DNA of 64,000 nucleotides from assembly GCA_051306435.1 (NCBI GenBank), contig JBPPNF010000052.1, positions 4,906 to 68,905 of the forward strand, written 5' to 3'. The position numbers were made by a program, and so were the translations under genes. Each line of letters begins with the position of its first letter. The stretch's first letter is position 1. Shown one piece after another: positions 9,753-59,158 of the stretch. The notes beneath the pieces were generated by a model that did no database searches, was not told where the DNA came from, and saw only the letters and a list, made by a program, of their open reading frames with translations. This DNA comes from Solirubrobacterales bacterium (GTDB taxonomy: Bacteria; Actinomycetota; Thermoleophilia; Solirubrobacterales; JACPNS01).

Positions 9753-9899
9753 TTGCATGCCTCCGGCATGCAAGCCAAAGGTCCGCCGCAACGCCCCTTA
9801 TTCAAGCCGTTTTCATTGCTTGCCAGAGGCATGCAAGAAGAATGCCTTGGGAATCACCCGTTTACGATTGCCAGTCGGTTGCATGCCGGAGGCATGCAA
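9753..9899. repeat. REP/REPIN-like array type 1: three 21-bp palindromes, 63-bp period
   Basis: TTGCATGCC-nnn-GGCATGCAA units at 9753, 9816 (one mismatch) and 9879; same motif flanks the RAYT at 51-52 kb. Confidence 0.85.
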
Positions 9900-9917
9900 G
9901 GGCGTCGGGGGTTCGTT

Positions 9918-28106: not shown

Positions 28107-28255
28107 TCGCTCACCTCTGGTGAGCGAGTGGGATCGGTCTTCGCGAGCGGCTTGGTTGTGCGGTTTTCTTCGCTCACCAGAGGTGAGCGGTCGAATTCCG
28201 CTTGAACAAGCGGCCCTTTGGGTACTCATCAACTTCGCTCACCAGACGTGAGCGA
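28107..28255. repeat. REP/REPIN-like array type 2: three 21-bp palindromes, 63- and 65-bp spacing
   Basis: TCGCTCACC-nnn-GGTGAGCGA units at 28107, 28170 and 28235 (last two imperfect), between convergent genes. Confidence 0.8.
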
Positions 28256-44200: not shown

Positions 44201-47200
44201 GCGCGGCGAGGTGCGCCGGCTCGTTCGCGCCCGGTACGACGTTGTAGACGGTGCCGCTCAGCGAGAACTGCTCGGCGTTCGCGCCGATACCGGTTGTGAT
44301 CGATCCGACGGCGCTGCTCGGCGTGGTCGTGCCACAGGTGCCGGCCGCAGCGTCGGCCTGTGAACAGCGGACGACGGCCGTGGTGTTGGCGACAAGGCCG
44401 ACCGGCAACTTCACGTTGAGGTTGCGGATCGTGTTGACCGTACTGCCGCCGTTGTTGACGGCGATGTTGAGGTTCGGGTTGGCACCCGCGACATAGCTGC
44501 TGAGTGTGCCCGAGAATGTCGGGGCGAAGCTCGTGGTGACGCACGGGCTGTTGGTGTCGAAGTTCGAGTTGTTGGTCGTGGCGCTGCTCGGGTTGTTGTA
44601 CGGGTACATCTGCGCCGCGATCGTGTTCGTCGCCGAGCATGTCGTAGGCGTGACCAGCATCGCCTTGCTGCCGGTGGCGAGGTTCACGGTCAGGTTGTTG
44701 AACGAGAGGTCCGGGAGGTTGTCGAAGTCGGCGGTGACCACTCCGGTTCCGGAGTCGACGCTGCCGGTCGCACCGGCCGGGACGGTCGTGTCACCGTTGA
44801 CGCGGACCTTGCCGCGGATCACCAGGCTCTGGCCCGGGAGCGCGATGATCATCGCCAGGCGGAAGCGGGTATCCGGGGATCCGCCGACGTCAGGTGACTC
44901 GAGATAGACGCTTCCGGTAAAGGTTCCCGAGATCAGCGGCGTCGTCATCGACACCGTTCCGACGACCTGCTTGCCGGCCGCTGAGCATGCGTCAGCTCCG
45001 CCTGCGCTGCTGTTGATCGTGGCGGTCGGGCAGGTGAAGCCGGCGGGGTAGTTGCCGACGGCCGGGTTGACCGACATGCCCGCCGGGAAGGTCAGCCTGA
45101 GCTGCTTCAACGTGGCGTTGCCGCTCGAGTTGCTGACGGTGACGTCCAGTCCGACGGGCGACTGCGTTGCCGGTGTCGCCGGGTTGGTCGCGACGGTCGT
45201 GGTCGGCGGCGTTGCGCCGAAGCCGCCGGCGCAGGCGCCGACGGTGAAGTTCTGAGTGCCGGTCGCGGTGCTGGCGAGGTGCGAGGTCATCGTCGCGGTC
45301 GTGGTCTTGCTCGCGCCGCAGTTGCTCGGGTTGGTCATGAAGTTCGCTCCGTTGCCCGGGGCGACGCCGTTGATCAGGACCTGCAGGCTGCGGTAGCGAA
45401 TCTTCACGCCCTCATATCGAGCCGGCAGCGTGACGTTCGCGTTCAGGCCGTACGGGTCCGCGTCGGTTGCAGGTCGCATCGAGAGGGGGACCGGGAGCGA
45501 CAACGAACCGAGGTTGAACGGTCCCAGCACGACCGGGACGATCGCCGTGAACTTGGCGAGCGCGCCGGGCGCGACGGTGTTGTAGAGGTTTCCGGAAAGG
45601 CTCGCGAGACCCGCGCTCGGGGAAGCGACGAGCGCGGAACCGACCGTGGTCACGACCGACCCGATACGCGTGTTCGCCGGGCAGGCAGCTGCGTCGGCCT
45701 GGACCTGTGTACAGGTCGGAACCGCCGCCGGGGCTCCCGTCAGACCAGACGGCAGCGCGAACTGGACAGATCTCAGCTGCTGGCTCTTCTCCGGACGGTT
45801 CACCGTGAGCGTGAGATCCGGGTGCGCGTTCGGCGCGGTGGTCGAAAGTGTCTGGGCGAAGGTCGGGGCCCACGGGTCGGTTCCGGTGGATCCGACTGTG
45901 CCGTTGTAGTTGGTCAGGTAGCTGGCGCTGGAGTTCACCGGGCTGGTCGAGCTCGTCGAGTACGGCAGGAAGCTGGCGTTGAAGGTCTGGGTGCCGATCG
46001 TGTCACTGTTGACGAACATCGCCGTCGGGCTGTTGAAGGCCATCAGCAGCGACGACCACGGGACGTCTGGGAGGTTGTCAAAGACCGCCGTGAGTTGGCC
46101 CGTGCCGGAGTCGATCGCGCCGGTGCTGCCGCTGACTCCGCCTGTCGTGGAGCCGTTCAGACCGACCGAACCGCGAACGATGATCCGTCCACCGGGCAGG
46201 CTCAGGTACATCGCGAGGCGGTAACGCGTGGCCGGTGTGGAGCCGGGAGCCTCGAGGTAGACCTGACCCGCGATGGTGGTCGGCAGAAGCGGCGTCGTCA
46301 CCGTGACGTCGGCGATCTTCGTGGCGGCGCCGGTGCAGTTGTTGGTCGCGTTGGTGATGTCTGTGTCGATCGTCGCCGTCGGACACGCAGTCACGGCGGA
46401 TGCAAAACCGGGGTTGATCTCGAGGCCTGCGGGCATCGTGACCGTCGCGCGCCGGATAGTCGACTGCTGCGTGGTCGCGGCGGTCTGGTTCTGGCTCAAG
46501 TTGATGTTCAGGCCGGTGGGCTGCGCGGTGGCGAGCGTCGTCGGCGTGACCGCGAGCGTCGGCGAGAACGGCTGCGGCACCGCCGCGCAGTTGAGGCTCT
46601 GGTCGGTGTCGCTCAGCACGACGGTCGACGTCGAGCCGGTGCCCGGCAGGGCTGGACCGGAGAGGTCGCCGTTGGAGGTCAGGCTGGCCTCGAAGGCAAG
46701 CGGCGAGGCGCAGGTGTTCGAGGGATTCTGCAGGAACGGAGCCGTGCCAGCCATCCCGTTCAGCGTCAGCGAGATGCTGCGGTAGCCGATCGGGATGCCG
46801 TTGATCGACTGCGTCAGGTCGGTCGTCGCAACAAGCCGGAAGGTCGAAGCGTTGTCAAGTCGCAGGATCGCATAGCTGATCACGTAGCCGAAGTCGAACG
46901 GTCCGACGACGGCCGGCGTGACGATTGCGAGCTTGGCGGTCTGCGTCGAGTTGTCGGTTGCGACGTTGTAGATCGTGCTGGTCGGCATGACCAGTGTTCC
47001 CGGACCGAGGCCGACGGTGACCGCAGCCGATCCGAGCGCGTTCGCCGGACCACAGGTGCCGAGGCTCGTCTGCGTCAGGCCCGAGCAGATCGGGACCGCG
47101 TTCGCCGATCCGGCGAAGCCGTAGGGCAGCTTGAAGAGCAGCGACTTGAGGTTGTCGGTGCGGTCGGCGCGCGTGACGTTCAGCGTCATGTCCGGGTGCT

Positions 47201-48887
47201 GCCCGGCGTTGACGTTGCTGAGGTTCGCGCTGAAGGTCGGAGCGAAGGCGTCGAACGAGCAGCTGCCGTTGGTGCCGGAGGTGACGCTGAGCGCCTTGTT
47301 CGAAGTCAGGGCGGTCTGGTTGGTCCACGGCGTGAGCGTGACCGAGGCGTCGTAGGCACCACAGACCTGCGGGTTGACGAGCAACTGCTGGTCGTCATTC
47401 GGGTTCGACACCGGGTTGCTCACCGGGGCGCCGAGGTTGTCGAAGCCGACGCCGGTTGACGCGGTGTTGAGGTCGAGCGTGAAGGTGCTGTAGTTGAACT
47501 GCGGCAGTCCCGCGCCCCACGGCGTGACGTTCTGAATCGAGACGGTGACCTGGCCGTTGGCGGGGTTGGTTGTGGCGCGACCCTCGAACTTGACGGCAAG
47601 TCCTGAGCGTGCGGCGTAGAAATAGAGGCGGTAGATTCCGGCGGCTTCGTCGCCGGGCTGCGAGTCCCCGAGATACAGCTTTCCGATCAGATCGCCGGTC
47701 ATTTCCGGCGCTGCGACCGCAACTGTTCCGACATCACTCCCTGCGGGACAGGTCGGGGGGGCGTCGGTGATGCGGAATGTTCCGGTCGGGGCCACCGGCC
47801 TGCGGAACTGGTCCTCGGTGCAACCGGCGCTGCCGAGGCGACCACCGACGGCGGAGTTGATCTTCATGCCGACAGGAAGCGTCATGTCGAGCTGCTTCGT
47901 GTAGGCCGGCTGGTTGACGTTCGTCGTCACCACGGGATTGGTGAGCACCACGCGCAGTCCGACCGGTCTCCCGGCCTGGGTGTTGCTCTGGGTCACTGTG
48001 AAGTTTGATGCGTATGCCGCCATGCCGGTGCAATTCGGCGTCACGCTGGACGATGAGACCTTGAAGTCAGGCGCGGCCGCGATCTCGGAGGCCGGCTTGA
48101 GGTCGACGTCGACGTTGCCGTTCGAGTTGTAGGCGCGGGTGAAGACCCTTGATGTCCAAGCGTCACAGCGGGTGGGGTTGGTCAGGAAGGGCTTCGTGCT
48201 CGGCGCGGGGGCCATGCCGTAGATCGTCTGCGTCAGCGAGACCATACGGATGTCGCCGCCGAGGATCGGGTCAGTGCGCGTAACGTCGTCGATGATGTCA
48301 ATGCGAAGGCCCTGATCATCGGGGCGCAACGTGATCTTCGCTGTGAGGTCGATGTTGACCGTCAGTCCAAGCAGACACCAGGGCGCGTTGCCCTGGAGGT
48401 GGATGCCGAGGTAGGCCGGAACTTCCGGGTTTGCGCTCGGTCGGTTCCGCAGGAGAAACAGGCCGTTGCCGCCGGAGTTGAGGCTGATGTTTCCGCAAAT
48501 CGACAGCGAAGAAGATGCGACCGCCGAGAGGTTGCCGATCTTGCTGGAAGCAGGACAACCGGCGTACGACGGACTTCCGCTTCCAGCCGTCACACCGGTG
48601 TAGTCGACCGTGCAGCGGTTCGCGGCCGCGACGGCATTCGGGTCGCCGATCTCGCCGGCGGGCAGGTCGATGACCAGGCGCTGCGGGTCGTCGTTGTTGG
48701 GCGTGGTGAAGGAGATCGCCTGGTTGATGTTTGAGTGCGCGCCCGGGACGTTTGAGGTGGGGTATGTCGCGTTCAGCGACGTAGAGACGTCAGCGTTGGC
48801 TGTATTCGCGAACAGCGCAACCGAAAAAAGACACGCCGCGACCAGGGCAGTCAGCGTGAGAAGAGAGATTCGCGACGTCCTCGACAC
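32229..48887 (-). CDS. Giant secreted repeat protein (about 5550 aa, 12 units of about 440 aa, Lys-rich C-terminus)
   Basis: Uninterrupted ORF; signal peptide ending ANTANA; recurring GxVYLExPG and GP(F/Y)(D/N)LG modules every ~1.3 kb; start GTG 48887 inferred. Confidence 0.9.
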   Translation of the reverse strand: MSRTSRISLLTLTALVAACLFSVALFANTANADVSTSLNATYPTSNVPGAHSNINQAISFTTPNNDDPQRLVIDLPAGEIGDPNAVAAANRCTVDYTGVTAGSGSPSYAGCPASSKIGNLSAVASSSLSICGNISLNSGGNGLFLLRNRPSANPEVPAYLGIHLQGNAPWCLLGLTVNIDLTAKITLRPDDQGLRIDIIDDVTRTDPILGGDIRMVSLTQTIYGMAPAPSTKPFLTNPTRCDAWTSRVFTRAYNSNGNVDVDLKPASEIAAAPDFKVSSSSVTPNCTGMAAYASNFTVTQSNTQAGRPVGLRVVLTNPVVTTNVNQPAYTKQLDMTLPVGMKINSAVGGRLGSAGCTEDQFRRPVAPTGTFRITDAPPTCPAGSDVGTVAVAAPEMTGDLIGKLYLGDSQPGDEAAGIYRLYFYAARSGLAVKFEGRATTNPANGQVTVSIQNVTPWGAGLPQFNYSTFTLDLNTASTGVGFDNLGAPVSNPVSNPNDDQQLLVNPQVCGAYDASVTLTPWTNQTALTSNKALSVTSGTNGSCSFDAFAPTFSANLSNVNAGQHPDMTLNVTRADRTDNLKSLLFKLPYGFAGSANAVPICSGLTQTSLGTCGPANALGSAAVTVGLGPGTLVMPTSTIYNVATDNSTQTAKLAIVTPAVVGPFDFGYVISYAILRLDNASTFRLVATTDLTQSINGIPIGYRSISLTLNGMAGTAPFLQNPSNTCASPLAFEASLTSNGDLSGPALPGTGSTSTVVLSDTDQSLNCAAVPQPFSPTLAVTPTTLATAQPTGLNINLSQNQTAATTQQSTIRRATVTMPAGLEINPGFASAVTACPTATIDTDITNATNNCTGAATKIADVTVTTPLLPTTIAGQVYLEAPGSTPATRYRLAMYLSLPGGRIIVRGSVGLNGSTTGGVSGSTGAIDSGTGQLTAVFDNLPDVPWSSLLMAFNSPTAMFVNSDTIGTQTFNASFLPYSTSSTSPVNSSASYLTNYNGTVGSTGTDPWAPTFAQTLSTTAPNAHPDLTLTVNRPEKSQQLRSVQFALPSGLTGAPAAVPTCTQVQADAAACPANTRIGSVVTTVGSALVASPSAGLASLSGNLYNTVAPGALAKFTAIVPVVLGPFNLGSLSLPVPLSMRPATDADPYGLNANVTLPARYEGVKIRYRSLQVLINGVAPGNGANFMTNPSNCGASKTTTATMTSHLASTATGTQNFTVGACAGGFGATPPTTTVATNPATPATQSPVGLDVTVSNSSGNATLKQLRLTFPAGMSVNPAVGNYPAGFTCPTATINSSAGGADACSAAGKQVVGTVSMTTPLISGTFTGSVYLESPDVGGSPDTRFRLAMIIALPGQSLVIRGKVRVNGDTTVPAGATGSVDSGTGVVTADFDNLPDLSFNNLTVNLATGSKAMLVTPTTCSATNTIAAQMYPYNNPSSATTNNSNFDTNSPCVTTSFAPTFSGTLSSYVAGANPNLNIAVNNGGSTVNTIRNLNVKLPVGLVANTTAVVRCSQADAAAGTCGTTTPSSAVGSITTGIGANAEQFSLSGTVYNVVPGANEPAHLAALIPVLVGPFNLGNLPVDISTALNDGVADPTRAYGVDTFSQLPTRYEGVDVRVRSINLTLNGTVSGQPFMINPSECLAGSIGADIISPEPVTVARTTPATFTGCNRPYATDPTLAVTPSTTEAGQPVGLTFDLGSTLMNPTTKAIRLTFPTGFELNPAVGTGLNYCSAANLATTPGQTTCDGNGSRLGTVTLTTPLLSAPQTGAVYLEQPGTTGTTRYKAAIVVKLPSKDLILHGAITVNGSSTIPTGGTGAVDSGTGQIVADFPGIPDLGFTNMRVAFNSGGQALFVNPQSCTLSTFSALWTPNGTGAARTVTDGYTPDTNCSDPLAFAPTFNGNVSPTTSAGNPNLTLNFVRPDNNRDLRNITVGLPTGLVAATSATTLCSQATAAAGNCAANQIIGSVSTTIGSGASTFPLGGSMYNVQANAAEPARFAVVLPVVVGPFDLGKLSIPISTTLRTDLGVDATAQLPTRYEGIAVHIRSLQLQLASTANGNPFMINPSKCQSNAVTASMVSDGASPATVASSFNFTTGGCAGFGTAPTLAVATSSSVPADPAGLTFTINSAATNPTMKRVQITFPSGMEINPAFGTGLTACATATINAGGAGCAGSSQLANITMVTPLLNTNPTGKLYLESPGTTSTTRYRVAMVIDLPGQKLILRGAISINGSTTIPTAGTGAVDSGTGQISADFDNIPDLGFTSLSMAFNSGPNALVVNPETCANSFGATFTPNSDTGATSSSSPSYPLSGCGTFPFDPSFTASVSNPTPAGHPNLTLNVSRSDKHKTLKSMAIHLPTGLVANTTAVASNCSQASAVAGSCETTAAGSQVGTFNTSFGSGTATYSLAGGKIFQVTPNADEPVRFAAIVPVVVGPFDLGNLTIPVTSSIRADYGIDAAVTLPQRYEGIAVRLRTLAMTLNGTVNGNDYMTNPSKCQSNTISADFTAGDNSVDSSGANNSSSFTTTGCSSSVPAYDPTLSASVSPTAAGNPTALTLGVNVPTGSATTGRVQIAFPAGMELNPAVGNGLVACSTIDTDASSSNPCKLTSSNLAAVTLTTPLLPGTQTGEIYLETPGTTAATRYKLALVIHLPGRDLVIHGGTLVNGSTTIAGGGLGSTDPSGTATGQITADFPGIPDLGFTALQIAFNSANMLFVNPKTAATFTVNGTLTPNSVATTRTANATFTTSGGTTAVTGFNPTFSAALAPSTSASNPNLTLNVGNPLGMQELKSFDIKLPVGLVANTTGVPRCSQANADAGNCAAGNLVGTVTTTLGSSDTVAEDYTVTGSIYNVIPNADQPARLQAVVPVMVGPFDLGKLSVPVPTTLNSDLTVTASASLPSRFEGIAVRVRAMQMAIQGMPNGNRFMVAPSKCGSSNIEATMISDTSNSSTLTSAINVTGCPTNFATSPAFAVTPDTFTRTAPVNLAFQITSAANNPTIGRVQVAMPLGMEINPGFANNLTACSSVSIDAGGSTCPASSQIGSVSLKTQLLDPTTSYTGKVYLETPGNTASTRYKIAMVVDLPGAKLVVHGKVSIDGSSTIPTGGTGAVDSGTGQIIADFDTIPDLGFTDLNMAFSSANPMLVNPQTCSSNTFTTTMTPSSGGTNAAPTAAYTTTPAGCSDSFSPNFSVSVDGSSSTAASGHPDLNFHVDRPNGTNALNQRYLRELNLDLPVGLVAATTATTHCSQADAAAGNCSSDNLVGVFDAFIGNGTADANNLELAGQIYNVTPNASEPARLAAITDVQVGPYNLGKLMIPIGTQLNPDLSVSTTTTIPRRYEGIAVRIRKLDVSLMGIAPSTGKPFVSVPSRCQNNTVTADMISDTGSAATRTSSFTTTGCPRNFTAAPTVDVTSTPSDTTVPTGLGVTIGSDPQNSTISRFQLALPDDMSINANAGNGLATCSTALINAGGSGCPASSNQGTVTLNTPLLGAAQTGSVYLEDPGATGATRYKLAIVVHLPGTDMILRGKVLVNGSSDITAGLGATDTGTGRITTDFDTIPDLQFTQMVINFNTGNRALLTNPDTCGTQTTNSTITPSSGGADALVNSTFSLSNTLGCSASKPFNPTFTATPASTVSGANTDLTLAVTAGAKNEYLRNFNLKLPVGLVADTTATNTTCSQAQAAAATCTAASQVGSVVTKLGTGAETMDLPGTIHNVTPNSDEPARMAVIVPVLVGPYDLGKLTIPVPTSLRSSDYGVDATTLIPTRYEGINVRLAEMSITLKGIVDQGNGPGADDKGFIKNPSKCDAVGSTNPLRADLVPLTGSTAARSVNYPVTGCPVDFSPDPTLTISGTAGTTAVPTGMTLQIDSSASNPNVGSVVTTMPLGMTLNPAVANANGGLDACSTSQIDSNADACPLGSRIGSVELITPLLPGTKTGYVYLETPGSTAATRYKLALVVDLPGTKLIVRGSAAVNGSSDIAGGLGATDGGSPTGRVVATFPSIPDLGFTQLKIAFNGGPQALFTNAETEGTQTVSAEITPQSGGSTITADGTFNTVYGGSGSQASEPFNPSFGASFSTLDAAANPEVTITVGRSDYTQQIRDFDLHLPPGLVANTVLTPRCSQADAIAGTCAADSAVGTVTTQIGAGTDTLTMNGTLYNVIPDASEPARLAVVIPVTVGPYDLGKLSLPVTTQIVTGAQASDLSIDAHTVLPRYYEGVPVRVRQLQIQLDGMADQGTPGNTADDKPFMINPSQCTSHTLSATMVSTLGNAVTVGSPGGDFTTVNCANAPYNPAITASLSTTQRGKPVGLDLGFQFSGNSSSTKKIVTAFPEGMSINPGVGNYGAGMTCADATVEAGGSGCPSSSRLGEVALDTPLLPTTQTGALYLLPPVGNQASTRYRLGLFVDLPGSGDLYTAGSVTVDGSSDVPTGGTGAVNTGDGQVIATFDNLPDLQFSNLTLSFKTTGAGEHALLTNPNTCGTFRINADMSPWARPTDSINAHTDFTTTDVVANCSQTESADQSGYLSSQIGTGAESEYVAGASKPVTMTVNRPNSDKSIKRVKILLPPGLVGSADAAPTCLQADADAGNCGSTEPGSQIGTVTLKIGDSSDTYEISGGLYNTVAPSNRPAKFTFIADVSVGPFAFGKVIVPVDVNLDSNDYSLFAETGDMPQVFEGIPVRISQMQITLVGKANEGTPDEKIFMSNPRSCGDYLHIRAVVTSVFDKDDSNPTTKNADSQLEYKFTGCENLNLNANTVTIENQAVAPEVGHGAEHPTGLHVLIHQDESLATQATLKELELALPGFRLSAPAANGLAACSAAQLDSQTCPEASRVGTAWIDTSLLPKDQTSPDGPGSHSLWGAVYLETPGTASDGSDRYKLTIQLSGKTLITIRGIARVNETTGEITTRFAGLPDIPFTDFRVELTGYKKVVASTTTYFPLLLNPEGVVGSASTVEAAADMTPHSGTANVIRSSTLPIDAAVAKTFTPTSTSDISPLTSGGHPNAEFTISRGDAQEDIRNVSMQLPAGFLGSAAAVPLCPLTNAAAGTCTDISKVGDVIAKIGQYGQTLTMPGKVYLTEGVGGDIAGMSIKVPAKAGPYDLGDYITQGRIQIRPTDHGITANFVDVPKMFKGVPTHIQNLDISLPGIAQATQKPFLYNASDCSPFSVVTTLTPYNGAPASDSDGYQATGCPSRMFSPSIAFAATSAGDDRIAPSWTIKMHTENGDSTLKSTTVVLPSVMTVNVAGIADACPVDLVNARACPASSKIGTVSVDTPLLTTPVTGTVYMAKSVSGQSLPDLLLDIPAPIDMRIRGANSFISGSGASQIQSAFTNLPDLIWSDLTMNLTGGPKGILGLRSDGKCGSAASSFSSHSGQSVSQNSPVTGITAFCQKIVNTCVNPVVRVSTKGAKKRGNKKVSTSLSLTTAANCQAIKSARVTYPKGTKINKKLIKWKKTKNKKLAKTYKKNLKNLTGRVGSTKLTAKDFRVSGSNGLKFARTFPANARSLSINTKMSALLPSYKTFCAAVTRKKYKAAKKYKAALKKCQKKNVTFTFEITNVDGTAYRYNYVAPAGSKFFK

Positions 48888-49204
48888 GTTCTCATAAACA
48901 TCTGCCTCAGCTGATCGATTCGGTTGAACCGTCTCAAGACAGCCCTGGGAGCCACTCTGGCTCCGTGCACGCTCGCACATTCCCTGCATCCCCTTGTATT
49001 TATCCTCGTAATCCCCGGTCCGTCAGGCGGACCCATCCGCCACTAACCTGGCGGCAATCTGTACAGCAGCCTTTTGTCGGCAAATCGGCCCTGACCCTTG
49101 AGTAAGAAACGATCTGGTACGCGGCATAAACCCCGCGCAAGAGCGTCGATTCGGTGTCTGCTGCGGCCCCCCGCCCTGGTGGCCGAATGTTCTACTCGAG
49201 CGAC

Positions 49205-50275
49205 CTAGAGTAGCTTCTGGATCAGATCGCGCAACTCCGCGCCGGATCTGCGATCGCGATCAAGCACCGTGAAGCGGCCGGGACGTGTTACCGGAGAGTA
49301 CGAAACGATCTCCGAAAGACGCGCCGCGCCAAGCCCGAACCCTGTGAGTGCGCCCTTCATACCTACGGCAGCGATGATTTCGCGCACGGCTTCAACGTCA
49401 CCCCCCTGGAGCTGCGTCGCGACGAGTGAGCCGAAGGCAACCTGCTCGCCGTGCGTGGCGGTGCCGGGTTCGAGTCGGTCGAGCGCGTGGCTGATCAGGT
49501 GCTCTGACCCCGAACAGGGGCGCGACGAGCCGGCGATCTCCATCGCAAGGCCGCTGATCACGAGTCCGTCAAGCAGCCGACGAGCGAGTTCGATCGTGAG
49601 CTCGCCCTTGCCGAGCGGCGTGAGGTCAAGGCCTTCGATCAGCAGCAGCGCGCAGCTGGAGAGCAGCGCGGCGAAGTCATCGACCTCTTCTTCACCTGCG
49701 TCGGCCGCGATCCGCCAGTCGATCAGCGCGCTGCGATTGCCCAGCAGATCCCCCACTCCGGCCCGCGCAAAGCCGATCGGCGCCGCGGCGACGGTCTCGA
49801 GATCGGCGATCACCGCGACCGGAAGCGCGGAGCGTTCGCTCACCACTTCGCCGCCGACATCTGCGATCACGGAGATCGGCGAGGCGATGCCGTCGGCCGA
49901 GAGCTGGGTCGGGACGATCACCACGGGCAGGTCGGTCAGCAGCGCCGCAGACTTGGCGACGTCGATCGGGCGACCGCCACCGACCGCGATCAGCGCATCG
50001 TGATCGCGCGCCGCGACGGCAGCGATTCGCTGAACCTCGCTGCGGGTGTTGTCGCTGACGAGCTCGCGGGCCGCGCCGTTGATCTTCAGGTCGTCGCAGA
50101 CCGCCGCCGACTGAGAAGTACCCGAGACCATCAAAGGCGACCCCGAGTCGATCGCGTTCAGCACCTCCGCCAGTTCCGCAGCCAGGGCGTCGCTTCCCTC
50201 AACGCTGCGCAGGAACCGCGGCAGCTCGATCTGGCGCTTCGACGTGATCGCCGCGACCAGCTTCTCGTCAGCCAC
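49205..50275 (-). CDS. Glycerol-1-phosphate dehydrogenase-like protein (EgsA/AraM family)
   Basis: GGGRPIDVAK, PTQLSADGIASP, GSSRPCSGSEHLISHALD, HGEQVA. Confidence 0.88.
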   Translation of the reverse strand: MADEKLVAAITSKRQIELPRFLRSVEGSDALAAELAEVLNAIDSGSPLMVSGTSQSAAVCDDLKINGAARELVSDNTRSEVQRIAAVAARDHDALIAVGGGRPIDVAKSAALLTDLPVVIVPTQLSADGIASPISVIADVGGEVVSERSALPVAVIADLETVAAAPIGFARAGVGDLLGNRSALIDWRIAADAGEEEVDDFAALLSSCALLLIEGLDLTPLGKGELTIELARRLLDGLVISGLAMEIAGSSRPCSGSEHLISHALDRLEPGTATHGEQVAFGSLVATQLQGGDVEAVREIIAAVGMKGALTGFGLGAARLSEIVSYSPVTRPGRFTVLDRDRRSGAELRDLIQKLL

Positions 50276-50993
50276 TGACGGCCGCCTTGCCGTCGATCGC
50301 GGGAGCGATCACCTTGCGCGCGCGGGCGAGGTCGTCGTGGTCATCGATTTCGACCCACTTCGTACCGCCGATGCGCTCAAGGCGCACGCGGCGTTCTTTG
50401 GCGAGCGCTTCGATCGCGTCCTCGTAGTAGACCTGCACGTTCCCGGCGGCGATGAACTCGTCGAGGATCTCGGCCATGCGTGGGCCGTCGGCCGGGTCGA
50501 TGCGGGTGAGTCCGATGTACTCGCCGACTGAGCTGTCGAACGGCAGTGATTTGTGCAGGCGGTCGAGGCGGCCGTCGACTTCGGTGGCCTTCATCGACTC
50601 CCGGTCAACTGCGAGTTCGTCGTCGACGAGGATTGCGGTGCCCTCTGCTGCTGCAAGCCGCCGCGCAAGTTCGGGTTCGAAGAGCAGGTCGCAGTTGACG
50701 ATCACGCAGCCGCCCCGCACGATCTCGCGCGCCTGCCACAGCGAAGTGACGTTGTTCTCGGTGTCCCAGCGGTCGTTGAAAAGCTGCTCGACGTCGTGGT
50801 CATCGAATGCGGCGGCCTGGTGACCGGTGAGCACCACGATGCGATCAAACCCTGCATCGCGCAGATACTCGAAGGAACGCTCCGCAAGCGGGCGCCCGCC
50901 GACCTCGACGAACGCTTTGGGAATGTCGGCGGTCACGTCGCCGAGCCGCGACCCGCGACCGGCCGCAAGATAAATCACAGGAAGTTCCGCCAT
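50268..50993 (-). CDS. LicC/IPCT-like cytidylyltransferase
   Basis: LAAGRGSRL, PK, NCDL, GEYIG, YYED, WVEIDDHDD. Confidence 0.88.
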   Translation of the reverse strand: MAELPVIYLAAGRGSRLGDVTADIPKAFVEVGGRPLAERSFEYLRDAGFDRIVVLTGHQAAAFDDHDVEQLFNDRWDTENNVTSLWQAREIVRGGCVIVNCDLLFEPELARRLAAAEGTAILVDDELAVDRESMKATEVDGRLDRLHKSLPFDSSVGEYIGLTRIDPADGPRMAEILDEFIAAGNVQVYYEDAIEALAKERRVRLERIGGTKWVEIDDHDDLARARKVIAPAIDGKAAVSG

Positions 50994-51041
50994 CGCCGAC
51001 ACGGTACCCACCATCTCCCCAAACACCACCCCCAACCCGCC

Positions 51042-51148
51042 TCGCATGCTCCCGGCATGCAACGGAAGTTCGTTCAAATCCACCCCATGTCCAAGCGGTT
51101 TCTCTTGCATGCCTCAGGCATGCAGCGTTGCATGGCAGAGGCATGCAG
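51042..51148. repeat. Type 1 palindromes downstream of the RAYT
   Basis: Units at 51042, 51105 (63-bp spacing) and 51128. Confidence 0.85.
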
Positions 51149-51171
51149 CAACAACTCGCCGCACGGCGAGA

Positions 51172-51819
51172 TCAGATCGGTCTGTACGGATGCCGTCGAG
51201 GATCGATCCCCCATTCGATCAGCTTCCGTCGCACAATCGAAGGACCGCGTCGATTCATGAACTCGCGATAGTTGTCCATTCCTCCAAAAATGTTCAACGA
51301 AGTCGAGGGGTCAAACCACGTGTACTCCAGGTTCCCGACCAGCGCCTGATAGCTGGCGAAAGGCGTCTCAAACTGCGTGATCGGATTGTTGAGCTCGATA
51401 TACGCGATCATGTCGCGGATCTGCGTCGGATCGGCAAACTCTTGAAATGGGTTGGCGGCGAACTCTGAAAACACTTGCCCGCGCCATCCAGTCTCGCGGT
51501 TGAAGGAGCGCGCCTGCGCGGCGAGCACGCGCGACATGAGTTTTGTGATGCCGTCCGCAGTTTTCTGATGGGCAAGATTGTGCAGGTGGTTGTCCATCAC
51601 ATTGAACGCGATCACCTCAACTTCGTTGAACAGTTTCGTGTGTGTGCGTCCCCAATCGTCCCAGGTCTCGCGGGGACTGAGGTGGTTTTCGAAGCGACGA
51701 AGCAACTCTCGCTTCTGCGCGTCGCTGGCGAAGGGTTTGAGGTTTCCGATCGCACGCGAGGTGAGGTGGTACCCGGAGTTTGCAGTGAACGTTGAAATGT
51801 TCGGAGCGATAACGCCCAT
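51172..51819 (-). CDS. REP-associated tyrosine (HUH/Y1) transposase, RAYT-like
   Basis: YHLTSR, AFNVMDNHLH (HUH), FNRETGWRGQVF, YIELNNP catalytic Tyr, ASY. Confidence 0.85.
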   Translation of the reverse strand: MGVIAPNISTFTANSGYHLTSRAIGNLKPFASDAQKRELLRRFENHLSPRETWDDWGRTHTKLFNEVEVIAFNVMDNHLHNLAHQKTADGITKLMSRVLAAQARSFNRETGWRGQVFSEFAANPFQEFADPTQIRDMIAYIELNNPITQFETPFASYQALVGNLEYTWFDPSTSLNIFGGMDNYREFMNRRGPSIVRRKLIEWGIDPRRHPYRPI

Positions 51820-51936
51820 GGGAGTCGTGCTTCTTTCTGATCTCTGTTGATCTGGCCGTCACCCGTCATCGCGGCCCCTTAACTCCTTAAGGGTTTGAGC
51901 GGAGCACGTTTACCCCCCTACAACGGAATTTCTTTC

Positions 51937-52020
51937 TTGCATGCCTGAGGCATGCACAGGAAATCGCTTGAAACAAGGGTGTTACCGATCGCAGTTTCAT
52001 TGCATGCCTGAGGCATGCAA
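51937..52020. repeat. Type 1 palindromes upstream of the RAYT
   Basis: TTGCATGCCTGAGGCATGCA at 51937 and 52000 (63-bp spacing), inverted relative to the left-flank pair. Confidence 0.85.
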
Positions 52021-52046
52021 ACGGTGGGTTTGTAGGGTGGGCGGCG

Positions 52047-52949
52047 ATGGTTGGGGAGAATTCCAGGAAGAAATTGCCGCCGTTGCCGGAACTGATCGCG
52101 ATTTGTGGCGGTGAGGGCACGGGTCGGCCCGGCGAGCCGCGCGACCTGCGGCGCCTGTACGCGCGCGGCGTGCGCAAGCTCTCGATCCGGATCACGCGTG
52201 TGCTGCTGCCGACCGGCATCAGCGCCAATCAGACGACGGTCGTCGGCATCCTGATCGGCCTCATCGGCGCGGCGCTACTGGCGGACAACTACTTCTGGGC
52301 ACAGATCACCGCCATTCTGTTGCTGCAGCTCTCGTTCGTGCTGGACTTCTGCGACGGCGAGATCGCGCGCTTCGAGCGTGTCATCGAGGGCAAGAGCTCC
52401 GGCGCCGGTGGCGCGTACCTGGACTGGGTCGGGCACTACTACATCCCCGCGCTGATGACCGGCGCGCTCGGCTGGGCGATCTTTCACGAGACCGGCGACT
52501 GGTGGTGGCTTGCGGCGGCGTTGATCGTGATCCTGTCGCTCGTGCGGGTTCCCTACAGCGCGCGCGACCACATCATGTGGGGCGTCTACCGCGACAAGCC
52601 GGAGCTGCGCGACTCCGAGCCGATGGTCCGCGCGGCGATGGCGCGGATGGGCGGCGACCCGGAGGCTCTGAACCTCGAGGCCTCCGGCACCGAAACGATG
52701 GCCGGCGGATCGGGTCGCGGCTGGCTCTGGAGCCGCTACACGAACTTCGGTCAGCTGATCGTCTTCCCCGGCTACATCAATCTTGTGGCGGCGGCGTCGA
52801 TCATCGACATGCTGCTCTCCTGGGGCGACCGTTCGGTGGAATCGATCTGGGCGCGAGGGAGCCTGCTGGCGCTACTCGGGGCCGTGCACTTCCTGCACCA
52901 GATCCGGGCGATCGCCCAGGGATTTCGAGTCACGCGCGCGCTTGAGTAG
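52047..52949 (+). CDS. CDP-alcohol phosphotransferase
   Basis: ISANQTT, DFCDGEIAR...GAYLD motif. Confidence 0.9.
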   Translation: MVGENSRKKLPPLPELIAICGGEGTGRPGEPRDLRRLYARGVRKLSIRITRVLLPTGISANQTTVVGILIGLIGAALLADNYFWAQITAILLLQLSFVLDFCDGEIARFERVIEGKSSGAGGAYLDWVGHYYIPALMTGALGWAIFHETGDWWWLAAALIVILSLVRVPYSARDHIMWGVYRDKPELRDSEPMVRAAMARMGGDPEALNLEASGTETMAGGSGRGWLWSRYTNFGQLIVFPGYINLVAAASIIDMLLSWGDRSVESIWARGSLLALLGAVHFLHQIRAIAQGFRVTRALE

Positions 52950-54407
52950 CGCGCGGACGTCCCTGATCTGAGCAAGCTCAGCGCGGCTGAAGAAGCCGGT
53001 GACCAGCAGCACGACGGGATAGAGCACCCACCAGAGGATGCGCTCGACAACCGCTGCCGTGCCCACGGGATCCAGCACGTTGTCACCGACCACGGCGACG
53101 AGCGCCGCCGCCGCGATGATCTGAGCAAGTCGACGCCACTCCAGCACCAGGCCGAGCGTCTGACGCGCGCGGATGTACATCAGCCCGAGCAACACCAGAT
53201 ACGCACCGACCAGCGCAATACCGGCACCGACGATTTCGTGATCCGGGATCAGCAGCAGACCGAGGACGACATTGGCGACGAGTCCGGCAAAGGCGACCGG
53301 GAAGAGCGAGCCGGTCTTCCCCATGCGTGCGACGGCCGAGACCAGCACGAGATACGCGCCGTAGAACACGACACCGGTCGCCACATAAGGCACGGCGCGG
53401 TCTGCGGCGTGGAAGGCCGGCTGCGACGTGAGCAGGCGCACCAGCGGTCCGGCCAGCAGCGTCAGCGCGGTGACGATCCCGGCGGTGATCAGCAGGTAAT
53501 AGGTGAGCACACGGCCGTAGACAACCTTGGCCTCGGCGTCCGATTTGATCGAGTAGGCCAGCGGCGGCCAGGCGAGCTGGAAGGCGCGGACGAAGATCGT
53601 CACGCCCTGCGAGAGCTTGTAGGCGATCGAATAGAGACCGGCGGCGGCGAGGCCGGCCGTCCGCGAGGCGGGAATGTTCACGAGCAGAATGCGGTCGACC
53701 CAGTTGAGCGCGTAGAGCGAGATCTCTCCCGGCACGGTGGGCAGGCCGAAGCGCAGCATCGGCCCCGCCAGCGGCAGGCCGGGGCCCGGGACGCGGCGCG
53801 CAATGAAGTGCAGGACCATCAACCCGGTCACGACGATGATCGTGCCGATCGCGTTTCCGAGCACGAGGCCCTTAGCCTCCATGTCCTTGCCGATCACGAA
53901 CCACAGCGACAGCGGCACGGTGATCAAGACATTCGTCATGCTCGCGAGCGCGTACGAACCGGCCTTTTCCTCCACGCGGAAGAGCGCCATGAGCAGCTCA
54001 TAGAAGGTCGCGAACCAGAACCATACGATCGCGATCTTCACGAGCGTGTCGGCACCGGGCGCGTCGCGCAGCAGCAGCGAGGCGAGCGGCCCGGCGAGCG
54101 CGAAGCAGATCAACACGCCCACGGTCGTGGTGATCGTCAGCCCCCAGAAACCGGTGCGCACGACCTGGCGCGGGTCGTACTTGTCGTTCAGGAAGTAGAA
54201 GCGCAGCAGCGCCTCGATCGCGCCGAGCCGAAAGAGGATCGAAAGCACGATCACCGTGGTGGCGATGATCTCGACCTGTCCGAACTCCGACGGCGAGATG
54301 TACTTCGTGTAGATCGGCAGCGTGAAGAGCGCGATCAGCTTGGCCAGCACGCTTGAAGCGGTGTAGGCAGTGCCGGTTCGGGCGAGGCGCTTCAGGTAGC
54401 CGATCAC
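52872..54407 (-). CDS. Wzx-like polysaccharide flippase
   Basis: LPIYTKYISPSEFG, LRFGLP, DRILL, GLYSIAYK; many TMs. Confidence 0.9.
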   Translation of the reverse strand: MIGYLKRLARTGTAYTASSVLAKLIALFTLPIYTKYISPSEFGQVEIIATTVIVLSILFRLGAIEALLRFYFLNDKYDPRQVVRTGFWGLTITTTVGVLICFALAGPLASLLLRDAPGADTLVKIAIVWFWFATFYELLMALFRVEEKAGSYALASMTNVLITVPLSLWFVIGKDMEAKGLVLGNAIGTIIVVTGLMVLHFIARRVPGPGLPLAGPMLRFGLPTVPGEISLYALNWVDRILLVNIPASRTAGLAAAGLYSIAYKLSQGVTIFVRAFQLAWPPLAYSIKSDAEAKVVYGRVLTYYLLITAGIVTALTLLAGPLVRLLTSQPAFHAADRAVPYVATGVVFYGAYLVLVSAVARMGKTGSLFPVAFAGLVANVVLGLLLIPDHEIVGAGIALVGAYLVLLGLMYIRARQTLGLVLEWRRLAQIIAAAALVAVVGDNVLDPVGTAAVVERILWWVLYPVVLLVTGFFSRAELAQIRDVRALLKRARDSKSLGDRPDLVQEVHGPE

Positions 54408-55951
54408 GCGGGTTCGGCGTCCGGCCGCGACTCTTCGGTTGCCCCGTTGCGCGGAATCGCCGCGAGCGAGACCGCCGCGCCGAGCAGCGCCCAGGTCAGC
54501 GGATCCTCAAGCAGCGCCGCATACGCGAGTGAATGCACAAAGATCGCCGTGAATGCCGCGGCCACCGCCACGCGCGCCACCAGACCGGGCCGGCCGCGCG
54601 GGCCGTCATCCTTGCCGACGCGCCGGAAAACGGCGCCGAAGCCGGCGACCAGCAGCGCGATGAACGCGGCCAGCCCGACGATGCCCTGCTCAGCCGCGAC
54701 CGTCAGCGGCGATGTGTGCGACTTGGTCGTGCTCGCAGGTCCGTAGATCGTGCGCTTGGCGAGTTTGTTGGCCCGGTAGGACTCGGAGAAGTCGCCCGAG
54801 CCGTGGCCGAAGAACGGCTTCTGTCCCCACAGCGAAAGGCCGCCGGTCACCAGATCGAAGCGGCCGCTCGTTGACTTCTCGGCGCTCTTGCCGTCGGTCA
54901 GATCAACCCCTGTGATCGACGGGAACGCAAACGCGAAGATCAGCCCGGCCAGCAGCGCCACCCCGGTCACGATCAGGACCGACTTCGCCTTCCAGCGCAG
55001 CGCGGCCAGAACGATCAGCCCTGCCAGCAACGCCGCGAAGCTCGACTGCGAGAGCGAGAGCACCAGGCCGGCCCAGAGGATCGCGAGCAGCAGCGCGGCG
55101 CCGAGCACGCGTCGCGTCTTGCCCGTGTAGAGCATCAACGCCGTGACGACGAGCATCACGATCGCGAGGAAGCGCCCGTAGATGTTCGGATCGAAGAAGA
55201 GCGACTGCACGCGGAAGTACGGATCGAAGTCCGAAGGTTGCGAGCCGCCGATCGTCACCAGATAGCGGCCCTGCGCGAACTCGATGAAGCCGGCGAACAC
55301 GAGCACCAGCGCAACTGTCACCAACGTGACCGCGCAGACGCGCAGCAGCTGCGCGTCCCACTTCTGCGCCGCAGCCAGGCCGTAGAGCAACACGAAAGGC
55401 GCGTAGAAGAAGCAGAAGTTCTGCGTCGCGACTGAAATGTCGCCGGCGTAGACGCTCTGCACTGCATAGAGCGCGAGGAAAACGACGATCGTCACGTCGA
55501 GCAGCTTCGGTCCGCGCGGATTGTCGACTGCGCGGCCGCGCCAGTAGCTCCAGGCACGCGCGACGACGGCGCCACCGATCGTCAGGTACAGCGGCAGCAG
55601 CAGCTTCACGGACTCGCCGCCGATGTCGATCGGCACGCGGAAGGCCAGGGTTGCCAGCGCGGCAGGAATCACGGCGCGCGGGTAGCGCACGAAGATCGCG
55701 GCAGCGGCGGCAAGCGCGATCGCCCCGGCGACCAGTCCGGCCACGATCAGCGGCGCCGAAATCTGCGGCAGGCTCGACTGCTCGTCGCCGACCACGGAGC
55801 CGGCGAGCACCAGCGGGGCCATCGCAAGCACGAGCACCGCGCTGATCCAGCGCAGGCGCTCGCTCGACGCCAGCAGCCAGCCGGCGATCAGCGCGGCGAG
55901 CAGGGCCAGGCCGAAGCTCTGCAGAGCATTTGCGACGGCGAGCTGCGTCAT
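54404..55951 (-). CDS. O-antigen ligase/Wzy-like polymerase
   Basis: RVQSLFFDPN, LSLSQS, SGR, GHGSG, SHTS...AEQGIVG. Confidence 0.88.
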   Translation of the reverse strand: MTQLAVANALQSFGLALLAALIAGWLLASSERLRWISAVLVLAMAPLVLAGSVVGDEQSSLPQISAPLIVAGLVAGAIALAAAAAIFVRYPRAVIPAALATLAFRVPIDIGGESVKLLLPLYLTIGGAVVARAWSYWRGRAVDNPRGPKLLDVTIVVFLALYAVQSVYAGDISVATQNFCFFYAPFVLLYGLAAAQKWDAQLLRVCAVTLVTVALVLVFAGFIEFAQGRYLVTIGGSQPSDFDPYFRVQSLFFDPNIYGRFLAIVMLVVTALMLYTGKTRRVLGAALLLAILWAGLVLSLSQSSFAALLAGLIVLAALRWKAKSVLIVTGVALLAGLIFAFAFPSITGVDLTDGKSAEKSTSGRFDLVTGGLSLWGQKPFFGHGSGDFSESYRANKLAKRTIYGPASTTKSHTSPLTVAAEQGIVGLAAFIALLVAGFGAVFRRVGKDDGPRGRPGLVARVAVAAAFTAIFVHSLAYAALLEDPLTWALLGAAVSLAAIPRNGATEESRPDAEPA

Positions 55952-57834: not shown

Positions 57835-57844
57835 GCCGGGCGGA

Positions 57845-59104
57845 TTACTGATCGAAGTCCGCGCCGAGCACAACGATCACCGGCACAGATCCACCGGCCG
57901 CGAGCACATCGTCGTTTGCCGGCTTGATGTCGGTGACTGCCAGTTCCTTGGCCACCTCGGTCGCCTCCTGCTTGCTCCCTGAGGCGTAATACACGATGCT
58001 CGTCGGGTGGACGGTGCCGTCGTTGAGGTTGCCGGTGGTGGTGTCGGTGAAGCCAGCCTTGTTCAGTCCCGTTGCTGCGGTCGCGGCGATGCCGGCGGTG
58101 TCGGTTCCGTTCAGCACGGCAACGGTGACTGCTGCGCGATTGATCCGCGGGTCGCGGTTGGTCGCGGTGTTCTGTGTCTCCTGGGCGGCCGAGCCGCTGG
58201 TCTGCTTGCCCGTGTCTGCGGCGTCGTCACCCCCGAGCAGCTGCGTTCCGATCAGGATCACGGCAAATACTGCGACGAGCACTCCGGCGACGGCGAAGGG
58301 CACCCGGCTGCGCTGTTCGGCCGGCGGATCGATCGCCTCGAAGTGGCCGGAGCCGGTGGCGCCGGTCGAGAGGTAGTAGTCGGGGATCGGCGGCGTGGTC
58401 GGACCGCGCACGGCTGTGAACTCGGATGTGTCCAGCGGCGGCAGCGGCGGCAGCGGAGCGGCCGCGCGCGCGGCGGCAGGCGTGGAGGGTGTGAGCAGGT
58501 TCTGCTCGGACTCGGACGGGACCCGAGGCGGAGCGTCGCCTTCGGGCGGGGCCGGGTGGACGATCGTGTCACCGGCGCCTGCGCTGGCGGCGGCCACTTC
58601 GTAGGGCGCGTGCTCGGCGCTGCCTTCGACCGCCTCTTCCTCGGCCGGCTGATCTTCGCCGGCCTCGGGAGCCGCGGCCACGGCCTCGGCCTCCTCGCCG
58701 AACTCCTGAGCGACGACGTCATGCGCCTGAGTCTCCTGCGAGTCGGTCTGCACGAGCGGCGCCTCTGCGACCTCTGCCACTTCCGGCGTGGCCGCGTCGG
58801 CGGCGACGAGCGGCGCGGCGGAGATGTCGACTCCGGCGTCCTGCGCAATTCCGGCGGCTGCTGCTGCCTCGGACTGGCGCAGCGCCATCGATTCATAGGC
58901 CTGCGCAATCGCCTGCGAAGCGATCTGCTGGGCGCGGAGTTCGATCTCACCGGCGCGCTCGGGCTCGCGGCCGGCCCACTCGCGCAACCTGCGTACGTCG
59001 CGCGCCTGCGAGAAGTAGAGCATCGAGAGCACTGCAAGGCCGATGATTCCGGCAAAGCCGGCAATCGCGCCGAAGTTCAGAAGTATGTCTTTGAGTTCGC
59101 CCAA
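57845..59104 (-). CDS. LytR C-terminal domain membrane protein
   Basis: VAVLNGTDTAGIAA...VYY...VIVVLGAD; TM helices at both ends of a disordered linker. Confidence 0.85.
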   Translation of the reverse strand: MGELKDILLNFGAIAGFAGIIGLAVLSMLYFSQARDVRRLREWAGREPERAGEIELRAQQIASQAIAQAYESMALRQSEAAAAAGIAQDAGVDISAAPLVAADAATPEVAEVAEAPLVQTDSQETQAHDVVAQEFGEEAEAVAAAPEAGEDQPAEEEAVEGSAEHAPYEVAAASAGAGDTIVHPAPPEGDAPPRVPSESEQNLLTPSTPAAARAAAPLPPLPPLDTSEFTAVRGPTTPPIPDYYLSTGATGSGHFEAIDPPAEQRSRVPFAVAGVLVAVFAVILIGTQLLGGDDAADTGKQTSGSAAQETQNTATNRDPRINRAAVTVAVLNGTDTAGIAATAATGLNKAGFTDTTTGNLNDGTVHPTSIVYYASGSKQEATEVAKELAVTDIKPANDDVLAAGGSVPVIVVLGADFDQ

Positions 59105-59158
59105 ATCAATTCAGCGCTGCCGCGCATCAGGCGCGGGGCAGCGGGAGATGCCTGGAGT

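Follow-up and report, generated by a model that had tools for sequence, protein, structure and literature searches.

A probable REPtron-like unit with phased palindrome pairs in a small-genome Thermoleophilia genus

Research on repetitive extragenic palindromic (REP) sequences and the REP-associated tyrosine transposases (RAYTs) that accompany them has been confined almost wholly to Proteobacteria and Cyanobacteria. RAYT-like genes flanked by terminal inverted repeats (TIRs) of a non-GTAG type, some of them ‘double palindromic’, have been described as TIRtrons (Di Nocera et al. 2013, PMC3733652), and untagged atypical structures have been reported for subclasses 2.6 and 3 of the Y1 family, in a 2018 survey whose sample of Actinobacteridae held Y1 members of subclass 1.1 (IS200-type) only (PMC6006769). 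Here we analysed a stretch of 64,000 nucleotides (nt), referred to as the window, from a Solirubrobacterales draft genome (G000) of 2.31 Mb with a G+C content of 64.5%, 56 contigs and 96% completeness. Positions 50994–52046 of the window carry a gene for a RAYT-like protein of the Y1/HUH type, set between paired palindromes. We regard it as probable that this segment is a REPtron-like unit, comprising a RAYT-type enzyme, its cognate hairpin repeats and non-autonomous derivatives that resemble REP doublets forming hairpins (REPINs).

The open reading frame (ORF) contains the motifs YHLTSR, MDNHLH and YIELNNP and is flanked by palindromes of the type TTGCATGCC-N3-GGCATGCAA, which lie 63 bp apart, start to start, on either side of the gene (Table 1). 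The right spacer, once reverse-complemented, aligns without gaps to the left spacer, so that the flanks are inverted, and the pattern CACCC..TGT..CAAGCG.TTTC is present in both. A previous sequence-only reading of this DNA had proposed the Y1/HUH gene, the inverted pairs of palindromes with their 63-bp spacing and the shared spacer motif, all of which are borne out; the four palindromes that it named are present, but it overlooked a fifth, which is located just inward of the inner left palindrome. Eight matches to the core pattern were found in the window against 0.52 expected, and none of 100 shuffled sequences reached eight. Three of the eight form a separate triplet that lacks a RAYT gene. 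The inner palindromes enclose 811 nt, in which the 648-nt RAYT-like gene is the sole gene.

The relatives of the protein, its motifs and the predicted fold of a homologue support its assignment as a divergent Y1/HUH relative of the REP-associated transposases. Residues H78, H80 and Y140 are invariant across 24 homologues; in an alignment of nine sequences they share columns with the HMH motif and the tyrosine of E. coli RayT, and N144 and F154 likewise fall in matching columns. When 1.84 billion representatives were searched with the family profile, 3651 proteins were found at E ≤ 1e-3, 236 at E ≤ 1e-10 and 14 at E ≤ 1e-30. Scanning 60 of these relatives with the Pfam model Y1_Tnp (PF01797) placed 40 above the cut-off and 5 below it, and left 15 without a match; among the close homologues, 4 of 24 match at E ≤ 0.01, and none of seven genomic matches exceeds the cut-off. 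The ESM Atlas model of a homologue with 83% identity gave template-modelling (TM) scores of 0.79–0.81, over 188–189 of 215 residues, against clusters in which 91–98% of the members are Y1_Tnp proteins. Several homologues are labelled ‘REP element-mobilizing transposase RayT’ by the Joint Genome Institute (JGI).

The putative catalytic tyrosine is part of a Y-x3-N-[ND]-P motif (here Y-I-E-L-N-N-P-I-T-Q-F) that is one residue longer than the class-2 signature Y---NP (Quentin et al. 2018, PMC6006769): NP and a hydrophobic residue are kept, one residue further from the tyrosine. The basic residue and the glycine of NP(L/V)(R/K)xG are missing, as is the glutamine of the IS200 type. The form Y---NP itself is present in three distant paralogues of the genome (on contigs C3, C40 and C5). 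Residues 145–215 are strongly conserved (FETPFASYQ ... FGG.D.Y.E.MNRRGP.IVRRKL) and have no match in Pfam, which includes the absence of a match to any C-terminal domain of the helix-turn-helix (HTH) type.

The palindromes are dispersed well beyond this locus. Allowing up to two mismatches, we counted 31 palindromes of this type (class 1) in 11 clusters across the genome. The sequence-only reading had called for a genome-wide scan of the spacing, and this proved to be non-random: neighbours are 63 bp apart in 19 cases and 23 bp apart in one, and within arms the spacing is 63 bp in 19 of 19 cases. The clusters consist of the two arms of the gene, seven triplets (three of which are within about 40 nt of a contig end), one doublet at the start of a contig and the window triplet, and nine of them are RAYT-less. 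Read backwards, the class-1 pattern has no match in the genome, and the same is true of the backward controls of all three classes described here. The proposed lack of a GTAG-type foot also holds, as a GT[AG]G/CGTC tag within 6 nt of a palindrome foot, on either strand, was found for only 1 of 30 class-1 palindromes (29 are tag-free) and 3 of 39 class-2 palindromes.

Class 2 (CTGCACACC-N3-GGTGTGCAG; 39 palindromes in 13 clusters) and a third class (TCGCTCACC-N3-GGTGAGCGA; 28 palindromes in 10 clusters) belong to the two closest paralogues, which are 66% and 63% identical to the window protein and each of which lies between palindrome arms of its own. In both classes the gene is enclosed by arms and the remaining clusters are gene-less triplets or quadruplets. 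These classes are phased at 64/65 and 63/64/65 bp; pooled over all three classes, the within-arm spacings are 63 bp (28 cases), 64 bp (17) and 65 bp (10), and the nine other spacings (23, 35 and 91–100 bp) are gaps between the two arms of one cluster. The third class, the cognate RAYT of which is the paralogue on contig C53, is also represented in the window by a triplet with spacings of 63 and 65 bp (3 matches against 0.09 expected). In total, the 2.3-Mb genome has ten Y1-like matches and no near-identical duplicate of the window gene, although copies may be collapsed in a draft of 56 contigs. Four of the eleven class-1 clusters are within about 40 nt of a contig end (C32:16, C37:97276-97422, C40:79802-79948 and C47:30), which indicates that the repeats break the assembly; the true copy numbers are probably above those counted.

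To compare arms, we oriented each half from the outer to the inner palindrome. The palindromes span 21 bp, with a perfect 9-bp stem and a 3-nt loop. All 19 class-1 halves align without gaps, with a mean identity of 96% in the stems and 45% in the spacers (range 17–79%). The period of 63 bp is the length of the repeat unit (21 + 42), and among 100 distinct units, drawn from all classes and five genomes, the unit length is 63 in 62 units, 64 in 26, 65 in 11 and 62 in one. A 16-nt spacer module of the type CC-S-CTTG-WW-CAAG-S-GG was found in 62 of these 100 units; in 58 of them it starts 20 nt past the outer palindrome, and in 61 its end is 6–7 nt from the inner palindrome. By eye, the remaining units appear to have a second variant of the module, approximately GGCTTAGGTATGCGG on the other strand. 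Triplets mostly combine one arm with each variant (A/B), and both arms of the window gene have the first variant.

Between classes, five of the nine stem pairs change on both sides, and each pair is paired in 168–200 of 200 cells. The loop triplet is orientation-specific (TC-N in outer palindromes), and the outer tracts are C-rich on the strand that reads inward and G-rich on the outward strand. In 16 class-1 outer arms of 40 nt, the mean fraction of G is 0.50 and that of C is 0.17 on the outward strand, compared with 0.32 each genome-wide; the bias is weaker in classes 2 and 3. A gene-less triplet, with the order palindrome-spacer-palindrome-inverted spacer-palindrome and outer tracts like those of the unit, corresponds to the gene-bearing unit minus the gene and one inner palindrome. 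As each palindrome is its own reverse complement, the two inner palindromes are also direct repeats, and a deletion between them would yield exactly the structure of a gene-less triplet. When the window triplet is folded as a single strand, its two outer palindromes pair with each other (z −4.48); folding into local hairpins is just as possible.

Across the three enzyme–repeat pairs of the genome, the stem sequence changes in step with the enzyme and the spacer module is common to all. Because the stems vary with the enzyme while the module is shared, specificity would be set by the stem. These comparisons of sequence support the view that the palindromes are the cognate repeats of the RAYT-like protein. 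The exactness of the 63-bp phase would be explained by growth of the arms in whole units, together with conservation of length while the spacer sequence drifts. Given that no insertion or deletion was seen in 19 halves, and only one in 100 distinct units despite the drift of the spacers, the distance that separates the hairpins and the module looks to be under functional constraint. A CRISPR-like array was considered and rejected, as the spacers share a module at a fixed position across loci and classes and the arrays consist of 2–7 repeats in two inverted blocks; no search for cas genes was made.

Table 1 Features of the unit and of related loci in the window and the host genome (palindromes are given as stem-loop-stem).
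Feature	Position	Strand	Description
Left outer arm	50994..51041		C-rich on the + strand; inside the inserted segment, judged from the orthologous intergenic region of a related genome, which is 25 nt without the element
Outer left palindrome	51042..51062		TCGCATGCT-CCC-GGCATGCAA; 2 mismatches to the consensus
Left spacer	51063..51104	+	42 nt; conserved 16-nt module at 51083-51098, 20 nt past the outer palindrome and 6 nt ahead of the inner one
Inner left palindrome	51105..51125		TTGCATGCC-TCA-GGCATGCAG
Extra palindrome	51128..51148		TTGCATGGC-AGA-GGCATGCAG; 2 nt inward of the inner left palindrome; overlooked by the sequence-only reading
RAYT-like Y1/HUH gene	51172..51819	-	215 aa; HUH = H78-L-H80; putative catalytic Y140 within Y-I-E-L-N-N-P
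Region upstream of the RAYT gene	51820..51936	-	CCTTAAGGGTTTGAGC stretch, shared with the region upstream of the C53 paralogue (by-eye reading)
Inner right palindrome	51937..51957		TTGCATGCC-TGA-GGCATGCAC
Right spacer	51958..51999	-	42 nt; inverted counterpart of the left spacer; module at 51964-51979
Outer right palindrome	52000..52020		TTGCATGCC-TGA-GGCATGCAA
Right outer arm	52021..52046		G-rich on the + strand; ends at the ATG (52047) of a CDP-alcohol phosphatidyltransferase-like gene
RAYT-less triplet, same class	9753..9899		Flanked by a convergent pair of genes; palindromes at 9753, 9816 and 9879
Triplet of the third class	28107..28255		Palindromes at 28107, 28170 and 28235
Other Y1-like genes of G000 (loci L002-L008)	C36:118-768, C53:20385-21038, C39:4097-4738, C34, C24, C3, C39:23466-24137, C40, C5		

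On its left side the unit adjoins a gene for a MobA-like nucleotidyltransferase, the ORF of which (50268-51110, − strand) is over-called by 39 codons upstream, across the left arm. The domain begins at residue 46 and the start is seen in a related genome, and we therefore place the true start at the ATG at 50991-50993. With the ORF corrected, the entire element sits between two divergently transcribed genes. Four public sequencing runs contain the stretch, as contigs, and no RNA run was listed among them. Elsewhere in the genome, the more distant Y1-like paralogues adjoin single longer hairpins that are dispersed 8–9 times: the gene on C34 has TCCACACTCGATCC-N5-GGATCGAGTGTGGA on both flanks (9 copies genome-wide), and the gene on C24 adjoins a class of 8 copies.

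The protein family is a feature of the genus. At E ≤ 1e-20 it is present in 12 of the 14 other genomes of the genus (an unpublished genome of the genus, G013, was included in tallies only) and absent from the 26 genomes that represent five further families of its order; the public records of the closest homologues are metagenome-assembled genomes (MAGs) assigned to Thermoleophilaceae or Solirubrobacterales. That homologous RAYTs should be flanked in the same way is confirmed by all five orthologues of 63–83% identity, which have two-hairpin arms 63–64 bp apart: the stem TTGCATGCC at a spacing of 63 in two genomes (one with three palindromes per arm), TTGCAAGCT at 63 in one genome and CTGCGCACC at 64 in two. 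Orthologues of 53–54% identity have a 9-bp stem with a 7-nt loop, and those of about 44% identity have single stems of 14–22 bp. At a further locus (L055 in G005; 38% identical), three and four copies of CGTAGATGTC-CGA-CA(C/T)CTACG flank the gene at spacings that alternate between 42 and 50 bp, and the palindrome begins with CGTAG, that is, with a GTAG-containing foot. In a maximum-likelihood tree of 26 proteins, the eight proteins with phased doublets form one clade (support 100/100) and the stem classes track its sub-clades; as the labels on the tree were defined from the feature itself and kin share labels, this shows clustering and not independent events.

Five of the 15 genomes of the genus, including G000, have the class-1 pattern, with 31 matches in G000, 30 in G002, 8 in G004, 38 in G009 and 83 in G010; the backward pattern has none in any genome. 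In G002 the 30 places form eight triplets, one doublet and two gene arms, and all 19 neighbour spacings are 63. The arms in G010 are tandem arrays in which forward units precede reverse units; they have up to 7 palindromes, and the spacing within arms is 63 in 28 of 29 cases (62 in the other). Two of these arrays (L114:238-747 and L117:234-839) enclose homologous segments of 510 and 606 nt, in which tblastn found no RAYT remnant (nothing better than E 0.04). A possible small ORF, read from the minus strand (...FIAGREAA.TST..LPW.RL.RRQST...), is common to both interiors, and the arms may carry other cargo besides RAYT genes. Outside the order, we inspected 33 loci of distant homologues from other phyla; hairpins with perfect stems on both flanks were found at only one of these, and doublets at about 63 bp at none. 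The one locus (L020), in a Coriobacteriales MAG, encodes a homologue of 26% identity with related hairpins of 15–17-bp stems on both flanks and, from its sequence, looks like a further REPtron-like unit.

Comparison of orthologous sites shows that the elements are gained and lost between species. The window triplet is missing at the orthologous convergent-gene junction in four genomes of the genus, three of which have 0–32 nt there and the fourth an unrelated hairpin. Of four further triplets compared with five relatives, three are absent from the closest relative and one is present there and absent in two others, such that, of the 5 triplets tested, the closest relative lacks 4 at the orthologous site. 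For the triplet pair that does share a site, the palindromes are 90–95% identical, the spacers 69% and 38% and the 60-nt flanks 48% and 32%, with no insertion or deletion in the core. The closest relative has the gene-bearing unit in synteny, with 82% identity over 3.7 kb. The same pair of genes is only 25 nt apart in G010, where the RAYT unit is beyond the next gene, and in G009 a whole unit occupies the site of the C5 triplet of G000. Because of such empty sites in relatives, we conclude that the C/G-rich tracts arrived with the element. The junction orthologous to window positions 9737-9915 (L075-L087) is a hot spot, and species differ in having nothing there, the hairpin GTACGTCAAAGATGCATCTTTGACGTAC, a C34-class hairpin or four tandem repeats of about 37 nt.

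Several observations count against a REPtron-like unit, and we collect them here. The check proposed for the protein, a search with the Y1_Tnp model, does return a match (E 2.9e-4), but its 21.4 bits are under the curated gathering cut-off of 23; for this reason, membership of the Y1/HUH family rests on the relatives, the motifs and the fold of the homologue. The NCBIfam model NF047646 (REP_Tyr_transpos) gave 14.8 bits against a cut-off of 80, searches of PDB sequences gave only chance-level matches, whether the query was the single protein or a profile built from 24 homologues, and hhalign of the family profile against E. coli RayT was not significant (E 0.53). The repeats are few for REPs, at about 10 clusters per class, and the dispersed copies are diverged, with no near-identical ones, so that recent transposition in the genome is not shown. 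The RAYT-bearing unit is at differing sites in three relatives, which fits a self-moving element better than a strictly immobile domesticated gene. In the public contigs over positions 44000–60000, the one apparent ‘skip’ across the gene (51124-51936, with 21-nt sides) has loose ends that are the flanks of other triplets and reflects cross-mapping rather than excision. A third small hairpin in the spacer was also rejected: although the module is itself a palindrome, just 30 of 62 units have pair 3/14 in paired form, and we consequently treat the module as a sequence motif. Finally, palindromy and stem co-variation would also be maintained by a dimeric protein that binds duplex DNA.

This last point leads to an alternative in which the palindromes are operator-like sites on duplex DNA, set six turns apart so that the bound dimers face one side, and in which the link to the Y1 gene is secondary. 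The perfect 9-N3-9 palindromes would suit such a protein, co-variation would preserve the symmetry that duplex binding needs, a spacing of 63 bp amounts to 6.0 turns at 10.5 bp per turn, and at the orthologous site the palindromes are conserved while the spacers drift. However, the sister classes, at 64 and 65 bp with a spacer type for each length, would be 34–69 degrees out of phase, a change in stem class goes with a change in the neighbouring Y1 protein at 8 of 8 loci of the clade, an orientation-specific loop triplet is needless for a symmetric dimer, and the elements behave as insertions that are gained or lost between species. We judge operator sites to be improbable as an account of the locus. 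The same evidence bears on the geometric constraint that the sequence-only reading had drawn from the spacing: a constrained unit length is upheld, but the strict reading as six helical turns is disfavoured by the 64- and 65-bp sister classes and by the tandem arrays of 63-bp units with up to 7 palindromes.

A further alternative is a reading of the unit as an ordinary autonomous insertion sequence of the IS200/IS605 group, with the palindromes as subterminal hairpins and the triplets as deletion remnants. The Y1/HUH core of the protein, the non-orthologous sites of the gene-bearing unit among relatives and the presence of a triplet in G000 where G009 has the whole unit are as expected for such an element. 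Against it, a second near-identical copy is missing (identity to the closest paralogue is 66%), the arms are inverted, unlike the left and right ends of IS200/IS605 elements, which have the same orientation, the tyrosine motif is Y-x3-N-[ND]-P and not the Y---Q of subclass 1.1 (PMC6006769), and the 811 nt between the inner palindromes, with a gene of 648 nt, leave no space for tnpB. In addition, the triplets mostly have an A/B arm pair unlike the arms of the present gene, which argues that they form a lineage of their own rather than remnants of it. Taken together, this makes an ordinary IS200/IS605 element quite unlikely.

According to our own, crude gene call, none of 22 class-1 and class-2 clusters is inside an ORF with high G+C at third codon positions (GC3), and nine are between convergent genes (four of class 1, namely those on C5, C12 and C21 and the window triplet, and five of class 2). 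A role in RNA, in which hairpin arrays terminate transcription or protect the mRNA where convergent genes have their 3′ ends and selection keeps the stems while the Y1 enzyme merely spreads them, would account for these positions and for the stems kept at the orthologous site, and the literature credits REPs with such roles (PMC3733652, PMC8266576), but we consider it highly improbable, as no T run follows the hairpins, a scan of 50900-52200 matched no Rfam family (only sub-threshold microRNA (miRNA) and small nucleolar RNA (snoRNA) noise, with a best score of 23 bits against a gathering score of 62), the gene-bearing unit is between divergent genes and the fixed unit length is left unexplained; such a role would also be compatible with a REPtron-like unit.

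For the REPtron-like unit that we favour, we propose a mechanism modelled on E. coli TnpAREP and IS608 TnpA (PMC3479197, PMC8266576). Each arm comprises a C/G-rich tract, a palindrome, a 42-nt spacer with the module at a fixed position and a second palindrome. In single-stranded DNA at replication forks, the palindromes would fold into hairpins, and the enzyme would bind its cognate hairpin. A nick at a site set by the neighbouring sequence could then be made by Tyr140 with the HUH-bound metal, and rejoining of the ends would allow arms or whole triplets to be copied, moved, deleted or lengthened by one 63-nt unit. The constraint on length may derive from a fixed geometry in which the enzyme or its complex reads the module together with two hairpins, and from growth of the arms by duplication of whole units.

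More tentatively, we suggest that this clade of RAYTs may use a bipartite substrate that would be new among the studied Y1 enzymes: two identical, perfect hairpins 42–44 nt apart with the 16-nt module between them, read by a dimeric or two-site enzyme that acts as a molecular ruler, with the A and B modules marking either end of the mobile unit. In comparison, the E. coli enzyme TnpAREP is monomeric and TnpA of IS608 is dimeric (PMC3479197). If the suggestion is true, the bipartite substrate would be a third mode of end recognition, beside that of TnpAREP (GTAG plus a bulged hairpin, as a monomer) and that of IS608 TnpA (one hairpin per end, as a dimer), and it would also account for the expansion of arms by whole units.

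These findings point to a radiation of RAYT systems in a small-genome genus of Thermoleophilia, with up to ten Y1 genes in 2.3 Mb. Such systems escape routine annotation because the scores of the family are under the Pfam and NCBIfam cut-offs. The three close paralogues with their own dispersed repeat classes constitute a natural specificity-swap series, in which one spacer module is combined with different stems, and the strict unit length with a drifting spacer provides a testable handle on how Y1 enzymes measure their substrates.

Among the described systems, the E. coli-type REPtron, with its RAYT (TnpAREP), REPs and bacterial interspersed mosaic elements (BIMEs) (PMC2817692, PMC3333891, PMC3479197, PMC8266576), also has a single Y1/HUH gene per class between inverted cognate palindromes, extragenic dispersal, several RAYTs per genome that each have their own repeat class, and regularly spaced clusters. 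In contrast to that system, the one described here has no 5′ GT[AG]G, its stems are perfect and without a bulge, there are about 10 clusters per class rather than hundreds, and the protein differs in its 215 amino acids with a conserved C-terminal stretch, its Y-x3-N-[ND]-P motif and its Thermoleophilia host. Each arm has two identical hairpins in the same orientation at a fixed 42–44 nt, whereas BIMEs alternate REP and inverted REP (iREP) with variable linkers. The REPINs of Bertels and Rainey (PMC3116915, PMC3337134, PMC5581495) resemble our triplets in being non-autonomous inverted halves at a fixed spacing that are thought to be mobilized in trans by a single-copy RAYT and of which a single strand can fold into one long hairpin (as for the window triplet at the z value given above); a REPIN consists of two imperfect REPs, whereas the triplets have at least three palindromes that are their own reverse complement and two spacers with distinct A and B modules. 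IS200/IS605 elements such as IS608 and ISDra2 share the Y1/HUH core, the hairpin-bearing ends and a single-strand mechanism, which is presumed here, and differ in having direct rather than inverted arms, identical copies, tnpB and the glutamine of Y---Q.

Among the ten papers listed by our search of the literature, none joins REPs with Thermoleophilia, Solirubrobacterales, Rubrobacter or Thermoleophilum, although supplementary lists and figures, which were outside its scope, may hold cases. The system also resembles TIRtrons or TIRYTs (PMC3733652) and subclass 2.1 (PMC6006769), which have a RAYT-like gene, long non-GTAG inverted repeats of which some are self-complementary, and repeat families of moderate size that occur as dimers or clusters; their tyrosine motif of the YIELNP type and their NH-u-H resemble YIELNNP and NHLH here. 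The present system differs in the motif GGGG[AT][CG]A[CG]: among 56 outer arms of 40 nt or more, only 4 have it (0 of 16 in class 1; one more, noted by eye, is in an arm of 39 nt at the end of a contig). Pfam recognized no C-terminal domain of the HTH type in the protein. The sequence-only reading had proposed a distinct class of REP, and none of the three outcomes that it had named as refuting its reading was obtained. The repeats are indeed untagged and cognate to their enzyme, but the proposal was overstated, as non-GTAG flanks of RAYT genes (PMC3733652) and untagged structures (PMC6006769) were already known, and we rate the system as a variant of the REPtron/TIRtron-like kind in a genus of Thermoleophilia rather than as a new category.

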